DNA from: Eubacteriales bacterium | Lineage (GTDB): Bacteria > Bacillota > Clostridia > Oscillospirales > CAG-272 | Length of the DNA stretch: 52,700 bases | NCBI GenBank assembly: GCA_045536865.1 | Contig: JAZSOK010000089.1 | Span: 1 to 52,700, forward strand | Reading direction: 5' to 3' | Shown: piece after piece, positions 10,540 to 34,433 of the stretch | How positions within the stretch are numbered: position 1 is the stretch's first letter | How the letters are laid out: each line of letters begins with the position of its first letter | The notes under the pieces: model-generated | What the model saw: the letters and a program-made list of their open reading frames with translations, nothing else | Databases searched by the model: none | What the model was told of the DNA's origin: nothing | Made by a program: the position numbers and the translations under genes

Positions 10540-10692
10540 ATTATATCACAAGTATTATATCACAAGTAAAAATGTTTGCTTGCAAGGACATTTTTACGCC
10601 TTGCATCAATGACGCAGGTGTGCGATAGCACACGTAGGGCGAAGCCCAAAGTCTTGCAGTGCAAGATTTTCTGCGTATATTATATCATCATT
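10540..10692. repeat. intergenic repeat block A: tandem 14-bp ATTATATCACAAGT x2, conserved TTGCAAGG cassette, then three mini-hairpins
   Basis: The 14-mer occurs at 10540-10553 and 10554-10567. Hairpins are GTGTGCgataGCACAC (10618-10633), GGGCgaaGCCC (10637-10647) and CTTGCagtGCAAG (10653-10665). The word TATATCATCAT lies at 10681-10691. Confidence 0.5.
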
Positions 10693-11020: not shown

Positions 11021-11105
11021 GGGGGAATTCCCGAGCGGCCAAAGGGGGCAGACTGTAAATCTGTTGTCACTGACTTCGCTGGTTCGAATCCAGCTTCCCC
11101 CACCA
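11021..11105 (+). tRNA. tRNA-Tyr (anticodon GTA), long variable arm
   Basis: Acceptor GGGGGAA/TTCCCCC, anticodon loop CTGTAAA, 13-nt variable arm, T arm GCTGG-TTCGAAT-CCAGC, encoded CCA. Confidence 0.93.
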
Positions 11106-11148
11106 AAAAAGAAGTAACTTTTGTTTACCAAAAGTTACTTCTTTTTTT
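11106..11148 (+). terminator. intrinsic terminator of the tRNA unit
   Basis: GAAGTAACTTTTG...AAAGTTACTTC hairpin followed by TTTTTTT. Confidence 0.85.
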
Positions 11149-11150
11149 AT

Positions 11151-11321
11151 CCATTGCGGAGCAATGGCATATCATCACTCCGTAGGAGTGCATATCATCG
11201 CCGCAGGCGCATATCATCACCGAAGGTGTATTCCGCTCCGCAATGATGATATACAACACTCCGTGTTGATGATATGCAATCCGCAAGCGGATTGATGATA
11301 TACACGCCTCTCGGCGTGATG
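11151..11321. repeat. word + mini-hairpin array B (3 units, then 3 inverted units)
   Basis: CATATCAT x3 (11168, 11191, 11210) are followed by CACTCCgtaGGAGTG, CGCCgcaGGCG and CACCgaaGGTG. ATGATAT[AG] x3 (11246, 11269, 11295) are followed by CAACACtccGTGTTG, CAATCCGcaagCGGATTG and CACGCCtctcGGCGTG. An outer inverted repeat CATTGCGGAGC/GCTCCGCAATG lies at 11152-11162 and 11235-11245. No ORF. Confidence 0.8.
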
Positions 11322-11398
11322 CGGTACGCGCCCGAAATTCATTAACACACCGCTGATTTTGTGATATACTTAAATGACTAATTTGAAAGGAGTGTATT

Positions 11399-11686
11399 AT
11401 GAAGAAAAATCCATTACTCGAACAATCGGAAGCAATGGCAACGCAGATAGAATTGCTTTGCCAAAATGTTAAAATCCCTTCAAATACCGCATTTCAAATT
11501 CAAAAATCTTCATCAAGCGTTTATGCCAACATCAGGGAAGCAAATTACGGGCAAAGCACCGCGGATATAATTTCAAAGTTTGAGATTGCTATTAAAGAAT
11601 GCTCTGAAACAGAAGGTTGGCTCAGGTTATTATTTAACGGTGGACAAATTGACGGATTTTTACGATTTCTTGAAATTTTTTCATAA
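11399..11686 (+). CDS. four-helix-bundle protein (23S rRNA-intervening-sequence protein / Avd-like family), apparently C-terminally truncated
   Basis: 95 aa. VYANIREANYGQSTADIISKFEIAIKECSETEGWLRLL matches the family core (ANIaEA...S..DF..K..IA.KE..ET.YWL.LL). Family members are usually ~120 aa, and this ORF ends where the padR promoter begins. Confidence 0.7.
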   Translation: MKKNPLLEQSEAMATQIELLCQNVKIPSNTAFQIQKSSSSVYANIREANYGQSTADIISKFEIAIKECSETEGWLRLLFNGGQIDGFLRFLEIFS

Positions 11687-13842: not shown

Positions 13843-13873
13843 CTTGACAAGCACTGCATTTGTGCTCACAATT

Positions 13874-14109
13874 GCGATACTGGCGATATGTTTGCTTCGC
13901 AAACGCGATATATTTTCGCCATTTGCTCCGCAAATGAATGCTCAAATGCGATATAACCTCCCTTGCGGTCGGTAGCGATATGATATAAATCCCCCCAACG
14001 CCCCGGAGGGGCATATCGCTTGCAGAAGGCAAATATCGCTTCCGAAGGAAATCTCGCAAAACCCATAAGGGATTTATATCGCTACGTAGTGTCCTTGAGG
14101 ACACTACGT
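13874..14109. repeat. word + mini-hairpin array C (GCGATAT units, then inverted ATATCGC units)
   Basis: GCGATAT occurs at 13883, 13905, 13948 and 13975, with a variant GCGATAC at 13874. It is paired with TTTGCttcGCAAA (13891-13903) and ATTTGCtccGCAAAT (13921-13935). ATATCGC/ATCTCGC occur at 14013, 14033, 14051 and 14076. They are paired with GCCCCggaGGGGC, TTGCagaagGCAA, TTCCgaaGGAA, AAACCCataaGGGATT and an 11-bp-stem hairpin at 14084-14109. Confidence 0.75.
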
Positions 14110-19700: not shown

Positions 19701-19730
19701 GAAAAACCACTTCTTTGGAAGTGGTTTTTC
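19701..19730 (+). terminator. intrinsic terminator
   Basis: AAAAACCACTTC-tttg-GAAGTGGTTTTT. Confidence 0.8.
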
Positions 19731-19733
19731 AAT

Positions 19734-19880
19734 TATATTCGCCTGCGGCGAGGTATATTGCATCGCAGTTATATTCGGCTTACGCCGAGTTATATTGCCT
19801 GCGGGGCACATAGGGGTAAACATCGCATCATATCGAGCAAAGCAAGCGACATCATTTTGAACGAAGCGAAATACATCATT
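19734..19880. repeat. word + mini-hairpin array D (TATATT units, then 24-nt CATCAT units)
   Basis: TATATT occurs at 19734, 19754, 19770 and 19791, followed by CGCCtgcGGCG, TGCatcGCA, CGGCttacGCCG and GCCtgcggGGC. CATCAT occurs at 19826, 19850 and 19874 with a 24-nt period. Confidence 0.65.
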
Positions 19881-27195: not shown

Positions 27196-27254
27196 TTTAT
27201 ATCACAAGTAAAATGCTTGCAAGGACATTATAACATAAAATTCAGCATCTGTAA
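27196..27254 (-). promoter_or_regulatory. promoter plus conserved leader cassette upstream of the FGGY kinase
   Basis: On the minus strand: TTACAG (27249-27254), 16-nt spacer, TG-extended TATAAT (27227-27232). This is followed by GTCCTTGCAAGCATTTTACTTGTGATATAAA, which contains a second TGaTATAAA. Confidence 0.6.
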
Positions 27255-27265
27255 AGTGATGCCGC
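27206..27265. repeat. 60-bp perfect direct repeat, copy 1
   Basis: AAGTAAAATGCTTGCAAGGACATTATAACATAAAATTCAGCATCTGTAAAGTGATGCCGC is identical base for base to 32941-33000 (offset 5,735 bp). Confidence 0.95.
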
Positions 27266-27313: not shown

Positions 27314-27407
27314 GGAATCCACCCATTCGCGCCGAGCGGATTTCACTGCCCGAAGGGCAATTTCATCGCCACAGGCGGTTTTACCCACCCGTAAGGGTGA
27401 ATTTAAC
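27314..27407. repeat. word + mini-hairpin array E (ATTTCA[CT]-type words)
   Basis: Elements are GAATccacccATTC, CGCgccgaGCG, GATTTCAC-TGCCCgaaGGGCA, ATTTCAT-CGCCacaGGCG, GTTTTAC-CACCCgtaaGGGTG and AATTTAAC. Confidence 0.65.
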
Positions 27408-27503
27408 AGAAAAAAAGCACTTGCTTTAGGGTCGTGCCCTAAAGGACAGTTTTGCAAGAATACGGTATATCTCGAAAGAGGTATGCCGTGTTCTTGTTTT
27501 TGT

Positions 27504-28049
27504 TTAAGCGCTTTTGGCACTTTGGATTTCTCGCATCATTTCAATAAGTTCCTTTTCACCGGGGATATCAATAAGCCCTACCGCGGTAAAGTAAACATCA
27601 AGACGTACTTGCTTTCTTCCGTCGATCTTTTCGCTATTATGCACTTCTATACGCCGAATGAGCCTATTAACAATGGCGGGTGTTAGTTCTTTAATGTCAG
27701 TACATTGGCGAATCGTTTCAAGAAACGCGCGGAGATCCACCTTGTCTTGTTCCATCGTCTTTAAGGATTCTTCAGCTTTTGCTGTTTCTGTAACCAACTG
27801 ATTTTGTTCTGCTTCATAGCTCGCCATCATTTTGGAGAAACGTGCATCGGGGATCTTACCAAGTACGTTATCTTCGTAAATGCGTTCGATCAGTTTATCA
27901 AGCTCCTTTATTCTTCGCTTGTTTCGCTCGATAGTGGCTTTCATATTACGGGAGTTTACCTCTTTCGTAATATTATGCTTCTTGGCGTACATATATCTCT
28001 GCACTAATAATTCCCACGGCGTCGTCCGAGTTGCAAGAGGTAAGCGCAC
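27504..28049 (-). pseudogene. C-terminal remnant (DUF4368-type domain) of a large serine recombinase
   Basis: The 181-aa ORF contains IERIYEDNVLGKIPDARFSKMMASYEAEQ...ELTPAIVNRLIRRIEVHNSEKIDGRKQVRLDVYF. That pattern is typical of the C-terminus of TnpX/TndX-like recombinases. The N-terminal resolvase and recombinase/zinc-ribbon domains (~350 aa or more) are missing, and only ~60 nt separate it from the next gene. Confidence 0.75.
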
Positions 28050-32796: not shown

Positions 32797-32940
32797 AAAT
32801 CATCTATCCTCCTAAACTTCTCAAGAAAGCCTCAATGCTTTTAGAATCAAGTATACACTGTTATACACTGTTGAAACTTTTGTCAACCATTAAAATAGAC
32901 TATCTTCAATATTTTATAGTTCTCTGTTTGAACAAATAAT

Positions 32941-33000
32941 AAGTAAAATGCTTGCAAGGACATTATAACATAAAATTCAGCATCTGTAAAGTGATGCCGC
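32941..33000. repeat. 60-bp perfect direct repeat, copy 2 (includes a promoter facing the small-ORF operon)
   Basis: Identical to 27206-27265. On the minus strand it carries TTACAG (32984-32989), a 16-nt spacer and a TG-extended TATAAT (32962-32967). Confidence 0.95.
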
Positions 33001-33118
33001 ATACTGCGTATGCTATGATGCATATCCGTTCCCTCATGCGCGGAGCGTATATCATCGCACGATAGTGCGATATCATACCGAAGGTATATCATCCGTGACT
33101 GTAAGGAACGGATATCAT
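32999..33118. repeat. word + mini-hairpin array F (ATATCAT words)
   Basis: Elements are GCATACtgcGTATGC (32999-33013), TATATCAT-CGCACgataGTGCG, ATATCAT-ACCgaaGGT, ATATCAT-CCGTgactgtaaggaACGG and ATATCAT. A long-range inverted repeat ATATCCGTTCC/GGAACGGATAT lies at 33022-33032 and 33105-33115. Confidence 0.75.
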
Positions 33119-33120
33119 TG

Positions 33121-33152
33121 AAAAAGACCTTGTCAAACGACAAGGTCTTTTT
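33121..33152 (-). terminator. intrinsic terminator of the tRNA(CAT) gene
   Basis: AAAAAGACCTTGTC-aaac-GACAAGGTCTTTTT. Confidence 0.85.
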
Positions 33153-33337: not shown

Positions 33338-33379
33338 GAAAAAAGCAGAAGGGAGGGGCGCAAAAGCGCTCCCTCCCTT
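33338..33379 (-). terminator. intrinsic terminator of rnpB
   Basis: Minus strand AAGGGAGGGAGCGC-ttttg-CGCCCCTCCCTT, followed by CTGCTTTTTTC. Confidence 0.8.
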
Positions 33380-33380
33380 G

Positions 33381-33771
33381 GCGACCAAGCATATAAGCCG
33401 TGTTCTGTTCCCGCATGGCGGGCTGCAATCATCTATCTTTGCGCCGTGTTACCGCGGCGCTCGGAGCCGATTGGCTCGCTGCCACAAGCAGAGGCACAAG
33501 GGGCGGGCCGCCCCGACGCTATGCGTCGTCCTCCGGTGTTGCTTCGGATAGGGTTTACATTTGCAGACAGTCGCCTGTACTGCCGGTGAGCTCTTACCTC
33601 GCCTTTCCATCCTTGCCGTCAAAGTTTCCTTTGATGGCGGTTTATTTCTGTTGCACTTTCCCTGAGGTCACCCTCGGCGGACGTTATCCGTTATCCTGCC
33701 CTGTGAAGCACGGACTTTCCTCACGATAAGACCTTTCGGCATGATATCGCGCGATTGCACCGCTTACTCGC
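33381..33771 (-). ncRNA. rnpB: RNase P RNA
   Basis: The minus strand contains the universal P4 strands GAGGAAAGTCCG (revcomp of 33714-33725) and ACAGAACACGGCTTAT. It also has AGGGTGACC..GGGAAAGTGCAACAGAAA and GGTAAGAGCTCACC modules. The ends are approximate. ORF-track ORFs at 33311-33729 are spurious. Confidence 0.88.
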
Positions 33772-34401: not shown

Positions 34402-34433
34402 TTGCAAGTAAGCATTTTTACTTGTGATAATAT
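34402..34433 (+). promoter_or_regulatory. conserved leader cassette (TTGCAAG..CATTTTTACTTGTGATAAT) in the putP 5' region
   Basis: TTGCAAGTAAGCATTTTTACTTGTGATAATAT contains the inverted repeat CAAGTAA/TTACTTG. It is related to the cassettes at 10540-10590 and 27196-27226. Confidence 0.5.

Follow-up and report, generated by a model that had tools for sequence, protein, structure and literature searches.

What sort of element keeps a short word and its base pairing while its stems change freely from copy to copy? The question is raised by positions 11151-11321 of a 52,700-nt stretch of contig JAZSOK010000089.1 (Eubacteriales bacterium), called here the window. This block consists of seven perfect mini-hairpins, six of which are tagged by a word (CATATCAT or ATGATAT) and form two inverted triplets. 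Judged from sequence comparison, it is a divergent, AUGAUAU-word branch of the Gut-1 motif superfamily (Rfam RF01706), in which the pairing and the tag are clearly under selection and which behaves as a module attached to stable-RNA terminators. What the module does is a more delicate matter: we tentatively favor, at somewhat less than an even chance, a strand-symmetric boundary (“punctuation”) element that would act through folded single strands, in the manner of repetitive extragenic palindromes (REPs) and bacterial interspersed mosaic elements (BIMEs). The parts of the locus are the following:

11021-11105, plus strand: tRNA-Tyr gene, its CCA end abutting the module (ARAGORN, Rfam tRNA model)
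11106-11148, no strand: bidirectional terminator, read from the sequence, with A5, an 18-bp stem (A:T pairs counted), loop TTTAC and T-run
11151-11167, plus strand: hp0, perfect 7-bp hairpin CCATTGC-GGA-GCAATGG, whose arms covary across species
11152-11162, plus strand: 5′ strand of helix P1, CATTGCGGAGC (pairing statistics over 32 copies)
11168-11228, minus strand: left triplet, three reverse-orientation units (sequence and parsing of copies)
11168, 11191 and 11210, plus-strand reading: left words CATATCAT
11176-11190: left hairpin 1, CACTCC-GTA-GGAGTG, loop GTA on the plus strand
11199-11209: left hairpin 2, CGCC-GCA-GGCG, loop GCA on the plus strand
11218-11228: left hairpin 3, CACC-GAA-GGTG, loop GAA on the plus strand
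11229-11234: spacer TATTCC between hairpin h3 and P1, variable and not conserved in the alignment
11235-11245, plus strand: 3′ strand of P1, GCTCCGCAATG, exact reverse complement of 11152-11162
11246-11321, plus strand: right triplet, three forward units (sequence, and covariation on alignment A1)
11246, 11269 and 11295, plus strand: right words, ATGATAT plus one purine (A/G)
11254-11268, plus strand: right hairpin 1, CAACAC-TCC-GTGTTG
11277-11294, plus strand: right hairpin 2, CAATCCG-CAAG-CGGATTG
11303-11318, plus strand: right hairpin 3, CACGCC-TCTC-GGCGTG
11319-11321, plus strand: truncated word ATG at the end of the right triplet
11342-11370, plus strand: promoter of the downstream four-helix-bundle (IVP) gene, TTAACA-N17-TATACT with TG, identical in relative L001

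An earlier note on this DNA had described the two inverted triplets and their grammar of a conserved word followed by a variable, perfectly paired stem, and both descriptions agree with the coordinates re-read from the sequence. The 11-bp inverted repeat that it reported (11152-11162 / 11235-11245) is likewise exact. In an alternative pairing, the 5′ arm and loop of hp0 join 11235-11245, and the resulting long-range helix P1 (11 bp) encloses the left triplet in a domain that resembles a cloverleaf; searches with ARAGORN and the Rfam tRNA model returned genuine tRNAs only and did not detect the array as a tRNA-like cloverleaf. Two details of the note have to be amended. The six hairpins it counted are present, but 11151-11167 is a seventh perfect one. 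Similarly, the block is not strictly free of open reading frames (ORFs), as some of 23-53 aa overlap it, although none reaches 60 aa. Upstream lie tRNA-Thr and tRNA-Tyr genes (ARAGORN) and then the A-run/hairpin/T-run terminator, while the promoter at 11342-11370 marks the right boundary of the element and stands outside it.

The evidence for selection comes from other species. The whole module of about 215 bp, bidirectional terminator and arrays together, is conserved, with 70-81% identity, across about 30 species-representative genomes of gut Clostridia (Acutalibacteraceae and “Eubacteriales” metagenome-assembled genomes, MAGs). These copies share one order: an A-run, a variable terminator hairpin, a T-run and ATCC lead into hp0; three reverse units ([C/T]ATATCAT plus a CA...TG hairpin) and a short spacer follow; next comes a segment exactly reverse-complementary to the 5′ arm and loop of hp0; and three (sometimes two or four) forward units, each with ATGATAT, a purine and a GC-rich CA...TG hairpin, end in a truncated word. 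Words are spaced by 19 to more than 30 bp. The terminator (11106-11148 here) belongs to the module and moves together with the arrays, an A-run/hairpin/T-run being found 5′ of nearly all homologous copies.

Within this frame, pairing is kept and sequence is not. P1 forms 10-13 consecutive Watson-Crick pairs with its own partner in 31 of 32 copies, against a mean of 3.2 with partners taken from other haplotypes, and it covaries through eight haplotypes, the loop bases of hp0 included. For the right triplet (alignment A1), with 500 shuffles as a control, 92.6% of cells were paired (73.2% when shuffled), 89 cells had changed on both sides (21.8 when shuffled) and the covariation score was 0.473, compared with 0.128 in shuffles and at most 0.086 in slid controls; none of the 500 shuffles reached the observed values. 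The earlier expectation that stems change by pairing-preserving substitutions is thus borne out by the ortholog alignments, for both P1 and A1. One-sided changes of the G-U type affected 4 cells of A1, compared with the 89 two-sided ones. Among 197 distinct hairpins with 1118 pairs, there were 40 mismatches, 12 of them wobble-type on the word-sense strand, 15 wobble-type on the other strand and 13 of other kinds. As G-U-type changes are so few (4 vs 89) and there is no strand asymmetry, G-U is tolerated on neither strand, and the stems are strictly Watson-Crick.

Chance does not produce such arrays. Three or more similar 7-mers in a row, each gap occupied by a perfect hairpin, occur three times in the window and never in 60 dinucleotide shuffles. 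Word-hairpin-word links number 81, compared with 25 +/- 7 in shuffles, and an independent count gave 53 vs 14 +/- 4. When genomes and viral contigs were scanned with the pattern ATGATAT-N8-22-ATGATAT-N8-22-ATGATAT, perfect hairpins filled both gaps in 60 of the 178 genome matches, and nearly all genuine arrays were from MAGs of gut or rumen Clostridia; the viral contigs yielded 218 matches and essentially one genuine GC-hairpin array (L164). By contrast, the CGAAG cores to which the note drew attention are present in 48 + 65 copies window-wide and, hence, are informative only within hairpins.

Single-sequence folding prefers one long hairpin in which left words pair with right words, and a larger fold of this kind had been proposed. 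The variants ATCTCAT (left) and ATGAGAT (right) never co-occur, and, since word variants do not covary between the two halves, such a fold is unsupported. A K-turn or C-box reading of UGAUGA was also rejected, as snoRNA matches were at chance level and no D-box partner was seen.

A new class of REP-like element had been put forward as one hypothesis. Gut-1 is already in Rfam, and the block, as a divergent branch of it, does not belong to an unknown class. The Gut-1 consensus has three variable small-loop hairpins with GUGAAAU between them (RF01706). Weinberg et al. (2010, PMC2864571) reported 43 examples, from “human gut only”, without a sequenced organism or a function, and rated the motif from its covariation as “certainly RNA”. 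In their seed alignment, GUGAUAU-word arrays stand behind a tRNA and its terminator and are followed by inverted AUAUCAC units. With the Rfam covariance model, whose gathering score is 50 bits, 27335-27409 on the minus strand is a true Gut-1 (67.2 bits). Relaxed thresholds were used for the other arrays. The best match in the target block, 11187-11261 on the minus strand, reaches 25.3 bits (E 0.018 in a 941-nt search), below the cut-off of 50, and three more sub-threshold matches were obtained:

33044-33120, minus strand: Gut-1 sub-threshold match, 46.6 bits
19730-19800, plus strand: Gut-1 sub-threshold match, 39.7 bits
14008-14084, minus strand: Gut-1 sub-threshold match, 35.5 bits

There are, therefore, five model matches in 52.7 kb, in addition to a related P1-closed three-hairpin domain at 10612-10677, which amounts to a REP-like density. 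As the earlier note had claimed, the family is recurrent within the window, and the Gut-1 model matches every array that it listed. Apart from its low score, the target shows the structure of Gut-1 (three tandem hairpins with variable, covarying stems and a conserved 7-nt word between them), and its relatives come from gut or rumen Clostridia MAGs, in agreement with the gut occurrence of the motif. We found no later work on Gut-1, or on similar tRNA-linked repeats, in the literature.

The true Gut-1 copy at 27335-27409 has a terminator on one side and, on the other, the promoter of an FGGY kinase gene. The 5′ flank of its first hairpin, AAUUCACCC, is able to pair with GGGUGGAUU, which follows the third hairpin, and this would give a P1-like closure. 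Beside it, a 181-aa ORF (27504-28049, minus strand) has DUF4368 as its sole domain, which we take to be the C-terminal domain of large serine recombinases; this ORF may be a gene remnant.

Other arrays of the window vary the same plan. A second family (33022-33130), which includes the 46.6-bit match, directly follows tRNA-Met and its terminator in mirrored order: terminator, four forward units closed by CCGTTCC/GGAACGG, and then three inverted units. In the window copy, the inverted part is reduced to one hairpin, GCATAC-TGC-GTATGC (32999-33013), and RNase P RNA (33378-33770) lies just upstream. Further loci have the same architecture with other words (GCGATAT, GTTATAT, ATGAAAT, TCGATAT and TATGTAAT), and every stem is different among the window arrays. 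Within the pair of arrays at 13860-14100 and 19730-19880, the GCGATAT/ATATCGC array has convergent units between convergent genes, and the GTTATAT array comes after a terminator; that array starts with TTATATTCGCC-TGC-GGCGA, a sequence much like the 5′ flank in the Gut-1 seed of Weinberg et al. The domain at 10612-10677 (hairpins GTGTGC-GATA-GCACAC, GGGC-GAA-GCCC and TCTTGC-AGT-GCAAGA, closed by ACGCAG/CTGCGT) is nearly devoid of linker words and is found upstream of the tRNA-Thr promoter.

Some arrays are placed just upstream of a 65-nt segment that occurs at 27201-27265 and 32936-33000 with 97% identity and carries a minus-strand promoter (TTTACA-N17-TGTTATAAT) and leader. Partial copies of this segment were seen at 10558-10585 and 34402-34429. 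A shorter shared piece is TATCACAAGTAAAAATG..TTGCAA, present at two more promoters.

Where, then, is the module placed in genomes? Out of about 33 copies of the target family, sixteen directly follow a tRNA (of many isotypes) or tmRNA gene, and the same is true for about nine of the thirteen copies of the second (33044) family; several fetched loci hold more than one array copy. Of 45 operon-terminal tRNA/tmRNA genes in the fetched loci and the window, a sample biased toward loci with arrays, 33 have three or more exact words in the 330 nt downstream and 3 others have other-word versions. The A-run of the terminator begins immediately 3′ of CCA. A link between the words and the codon or anticodon of the adjoining tRNA was discarded, as the same word stands behind more than 12 tRNA isotypes. 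On the right, there is usually a plus-strand promoter, so that the element lies ahead of the next promoter, and in several species the TTGATT of the last hairpin doubles as its -35. No promoter of the module's own was found, nor were minus-strand promoters, for which reason we rejected a minus-strand small RNA (sRNA) gene ending at the bidirectional terminator. The terminators beside arrays (11106-11148, L013, L033, L063, L067, L084, L105) belong to a few recurrent types, one with the loop region TTTGTCTACC and others with TCGACAAGTTTCGACTTGTCGA or CCTCGTTCGNAAGAACGAGG; these are common to different species and tRNAs and combine with either array family.

The neighborhood is otherwise ordinary. 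The 21 window proteins that were scanned against Pfam or are on record contained no transposase or cas domain; except for the DUF4368 fragment, those with a Pfam match are ordinary chromosomal genes, and several had no match. The element was absent from plasmid and phage collections, and an origin from either was accordingly dropped. Exact-protein look-ups for six window genes gave no match, contigs of relatives were obtained only through PadR and three IVP homologues, and a 25-mer taken from the right flank had 0 matches in a metagenome scan. The 23S_rRNA_IVP four-helix-bundle gene itself (11399-11686) encodes 95 aa, compared with 114-116 aa in homologues and 91 aa in L001; it has probably been truncated at the C-terminal end through an indel.

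Close relatives reveal how the module changes. Upstream of the orthologous IVP gene, the element is found behind tRNA-Tyr here, behind tmRNA in L247 and behind another tRNA in L001. L247 keeps the terminator (with one compensatory change from T:A to C:G), hp0, h2 (with one G.T), h3 and the central segment, while h1 is different, h4 is missing and h5 reads CAGTCG-CAAG-CGACTG. In L242-246, h5 is CAGCCG-CAAG-CGCCTG, with one C.C mismatch. L001 has a foreign left half whose hp0 no longer matches the retained central segment, and all its stems differ although the flanks are 97.5% identical. In-situ hypervariation, suggested by L001, was rejected: the mismatch between hp0 and the central segment, together with the stepwise change in other orthologues, is read as mainly recombination between copies, a reading not fully settled for h4 and h5. 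At L117:2339-2599 (minus strand), a half element (hp0 and three reverse units) has the same 31-nt terminator, TCCGAAAGCGTATGCTTTCGGATTTTTTTAT, on both sides and looks like a duplication or insertion footprint. Additionally, five independent Logan assemblies (L242-L246) end at one position inside the element (...ATATACAACAC), which would follow if that genome had another copy of the left part, identical over 31-mers, at a different place. Taken together, these relatives show that compensatory changes accumulate stepwise, that units come and go, and that copies recombine. The elements appear as junctions at which close relatives exchange flanking stable-RNA genes, and as break points of short-read assemblies.

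Which strand, and which nucleic acid, does this selection act upon? The polarity rule given in the earlier note is correct: loops are GNA or GNNA, closed by C:G, on the ATATCAT strand, with closing pairs C-G in 85% of hairpins, and the exception that it singled out is real (CAAG, that is, CTTG on the ATATCAT strand). Equivalently, loops begin with T on the word-sense strand. About 53% of array hairpins have triloops, mostly GNA on the ATATCAT strand, and the tetraloops include 25 GNYA and 19 GNRA; in the adjoining terminator hairpins, 59% are tetraloops (UUCG and GNRA among them) and 18% triloops. C(GNA)G triloops and cGNNAg or gCNNGc tetraloops are classic hyperstable DNA mini-hairpin motifs, while RNA hairpins favor GNRA, UNCG and CUUG loops. 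By nearest-neighbor energies, the ATATCAT strand is the more stable one in 46-47 of 150 hairpins and the less stable one in 7-8. The structured strand would, on these data, be opposite to the Rfam-modeled Gut-1 strand, and evidence of this kind appears undescribed. Behind tRNA terminators, triplets come as reverse-then-forward in the target family and as forward-then-reverse in the 33044 family and the Gut-1 seed. As both orders occur and pairing is strictly symmetric, we favor a strand-symmetric reading over a one-strand RNA gene.

In the boundary model, selection would hold each stem strictly Watson-Crick so that either strand could fold. Whichever strand became single, each composite would present one triplet in which the ATATCAT tag adjoins hairpins with very stable loops of the C(GNA)G, C(GNNA)G or G(CTTG)C kind. 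Such single strands would come from unwound or replicating DNA, or from RNA leaking in from either side, and a putative factor would read tag plus hairpin, with the result that a heavily transcribed stable-RNA operon would be isolated from its neighbor. The insulator between operons that the earlier note had put forward is a viable idea. Several observations weigh against this model. Stems of 4-7 bp are too short for cruciform extrusion from duplex DNA, and P1 requires more than 100 nt of single strand, a condition most easily met by RNA. RNA and DNA parameters favor the ATATCAT strand equally and so do not discriminate between the two, and no tag-binding protein emerged as a candidate. The census of operon-terminal tRNA/tmRNA genes is biased, since loci were fetched for their ATGATAT arrays. 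Moreover, both Rfam and Weinberg et al. (PMC2864571) class Gut-1 as RNA. A bolder proposal, somewhat unlikely in our estimation, is that the Gut-1 “sRNA” motif and its relatives would not be RNA genes but a DNA-level punctuation system of gut Clostridia, selected for structure only, readable on either strand, marking the ends of stable-RNA operons and other terminators, and recognized by a putative tag-plus-hairpin binding protein. If true, it would match REP/BIME at the level of structure alone, and its role would lie either in insulation, topological or transcriptional, or in recombination among tRNA loci.

The main rival to the boundary element is a strand-specific structured RNA of the Gut-1 class, either an sRNA or a cis element on read-through transcripts. 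With its three P1-closed hairpins, it would offer an RNA-binding protein or RNase three single-stranded linkers (AUGAUAU/AUAUCAU), for instance to process, degrade or stabilize read-through RNA. The Rfam matches, the covariation on which Weinberg et al. (PMC2864571) based “certainly RNA”, the strong covariation on A1 and the long-range helix P1 all suit such an RNA, as do the short stems, which fold readily in RNA, and the GNRA and CUUG loops on the ATATCAT strand. However, no promoter on either strand is directed into the element, which starts just after a strong terminator, and the two tRNA-linked families have their units in opposite orientations with respect to the tRNA upstream. G-U, without asymmetry between strands, is no commoner than other mismatches; stable RNA hairpins do not typically have GNA triloops or GNYA tetraloops; and about one array per 10 kb of window is a high copy number for an sRNA gene. 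We consequently judge this explanation unlikely.

A REP-like non-autonomous mobile element is a good deal less probable. In this reading, tag plus hairpin would be the single-stranded DNA (ssDNA) substrate either of an unseen HUH/Y1 enzyme (RAYT or IS200-type), as the earlier note had suggested, or of another hairpin-specific enzyme, and this enzyme would spread or rearrange units. Its grammar of tagged palindromes in inverted clusters recalls REP dimers and BIMEs (PMC3733652), and mobility would also accommodate the same terminator and array behind different genes (tRNA-Tyr, tmRNA and another tRNA), the L117 half element with its duplicated terminator, the gain and loss of units, and the assemblies that break at one internal point, as for a repeat. 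Yet the stems of different copies have no family consensus, and both h5 and the stem of the terminator have changed step by step through compensatory substitutions, a sign of old sites under selection. A GTAG or CGTC tag is missing; a crude regular expression found no HUH/Y1 signature and no IS200/RAYT N-terminal motif in 890 kb of related sequence; the 21 window genes scanned or on record include no transposase; and plasmid and phage collections lack the element. Homologous recombination between copies can explain the rearrangements. Finally, we consider it very improbable that the block is a duplex-DNA protein-binding array, in which words would be iterons or near-consensus extended -10 sequences (TGATATAC vs TGnTATAAT) forming a regulator site or a decoy for RNA polymerase or sigma, and hairpins would be incidental spacers. 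Words are invariant and spacers variable, and TGATAT is, as had been noticed, in or beside the extended -10 of four strong window promoters; that is a resemblance only, and the decoy idea would rest on the likeness to TGnTATAAT. The use of TTGATT as a downstream -35 fits too. Nevertheless, binding to duplex DNA leaves unexplained why spacers are kept as perfect covarying palindromes, and P1; the spacing of the words allows no helical phasing, the -10-like hexamer TATACA lacks the critical last T, and other loci use GCGATAT, GTTATAT, ATGAAAT or TATGTAAT.

Whichever of these explanations holds, Gut-1, an orphan motif since 2010, is now placed in identifiable lineages of gut Clostridia and belongs, as a single branch, to a far larger family whose words differ from locus to locus. 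A composite architecture is revealed (terminator, P1-closed triplet, inverted triplet) with a strong tie to the 3′ ends of tRNA/tmRNA operons, and its strict Watson-Crick, strand-symmetric pattern questions the RNA status of Gut-1. If the boundary element proves true, it would be a structure-selected counterpart of REP/BIME in Firmicutes and a ready-made natural insulator part.

How does the module compare with known systems? With Gut-1, it shares a tandem of three small-loop hairpins whose stems vary freely and which have a conserved 7-nt word between them, a position just 3′ of a terminator (tRNA terminators included) with inverted units after it in the seed, and the gut Clostridia. It differs in its word (AUGAUAU plus purine, instead of GUGAAAU/GUGAUAU), in a composite of hp0/P1-closed triplet, inverted triplet and terminator that falls outside the Rfam model, and in loop and stability evidence that favors the opposite strand. 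Additionally, Gut-1 was known only from human gut metagenomes, with no organism assigned.

Similarly to REP/BIME, the elements are short extragenic palindromes with a conserved tag at one end, in direct and inverted clusters behind genes and terminators, with probably many copies per genome and roles proposed at both DNA and RNA levels; multicopy palindromes clustered in both orientations were found in the window and in the fetched loci. By contrast, REP stems share a family consensus, while in these elements conservation is limited to the tag and to two bases at either end of the stem, and the tag is ATATCAT or a locus-specific variant rather than GTAG or CGTC (definition in PMC3733652). The target is also strongly linked to tRNA/tmRNA operon ends, and no RAYT was seen (crude regular expression, 890 kb). 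The REP survey describes no such elements for Firmicutes (PMC3733652).

The loops (GNA triloops, and GNNA or CTTG tetraloops closed by C:G or G:C) and the disposition of several adjacent small hairpins inside a longer helix are those of DNA hairpin signals. Hyperstable mini-hairpins such as d(C-GNA-G) and d(GCGAAGC), and multi-palindrome ssDNA signals such as Streptomyces telomere palindromes and G4-type complementary-strand origins, are familiar cases. Those signals, however, are telomeric or phage/plasmid-origin sites with known enzymes, and the target is chromosome-internal and multicopy. Intrinsic terminators likewise have GC-rich hairpins selected for structure rather than sequence, and the module opens with a genuine bidirectional one; array hairpins are followed by ATGATAT/ATATCAT words instead of a U-run, have different loop statistics, and only 11106-11148 combines a hairpin with a U-run. 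CRISPR arrays also alternate a conserved repeat with a variable segment, but their repeat has about 23-50 nt instead of 7 and their unique spacers are not palindromic; here the variable segments are self-complementary and covary between species, the arrays have 3-5 units and no cas domains occur among scanned neighbors. In short, the Gut-1 motif and tagged extragenic palindromes are known already, with the target under the Rfam threshold and outside the REP definition, while the AUGAUAU word, the composite P1-closed architecture and the link to tRNA/tmRNA operon ends appear undescribed.

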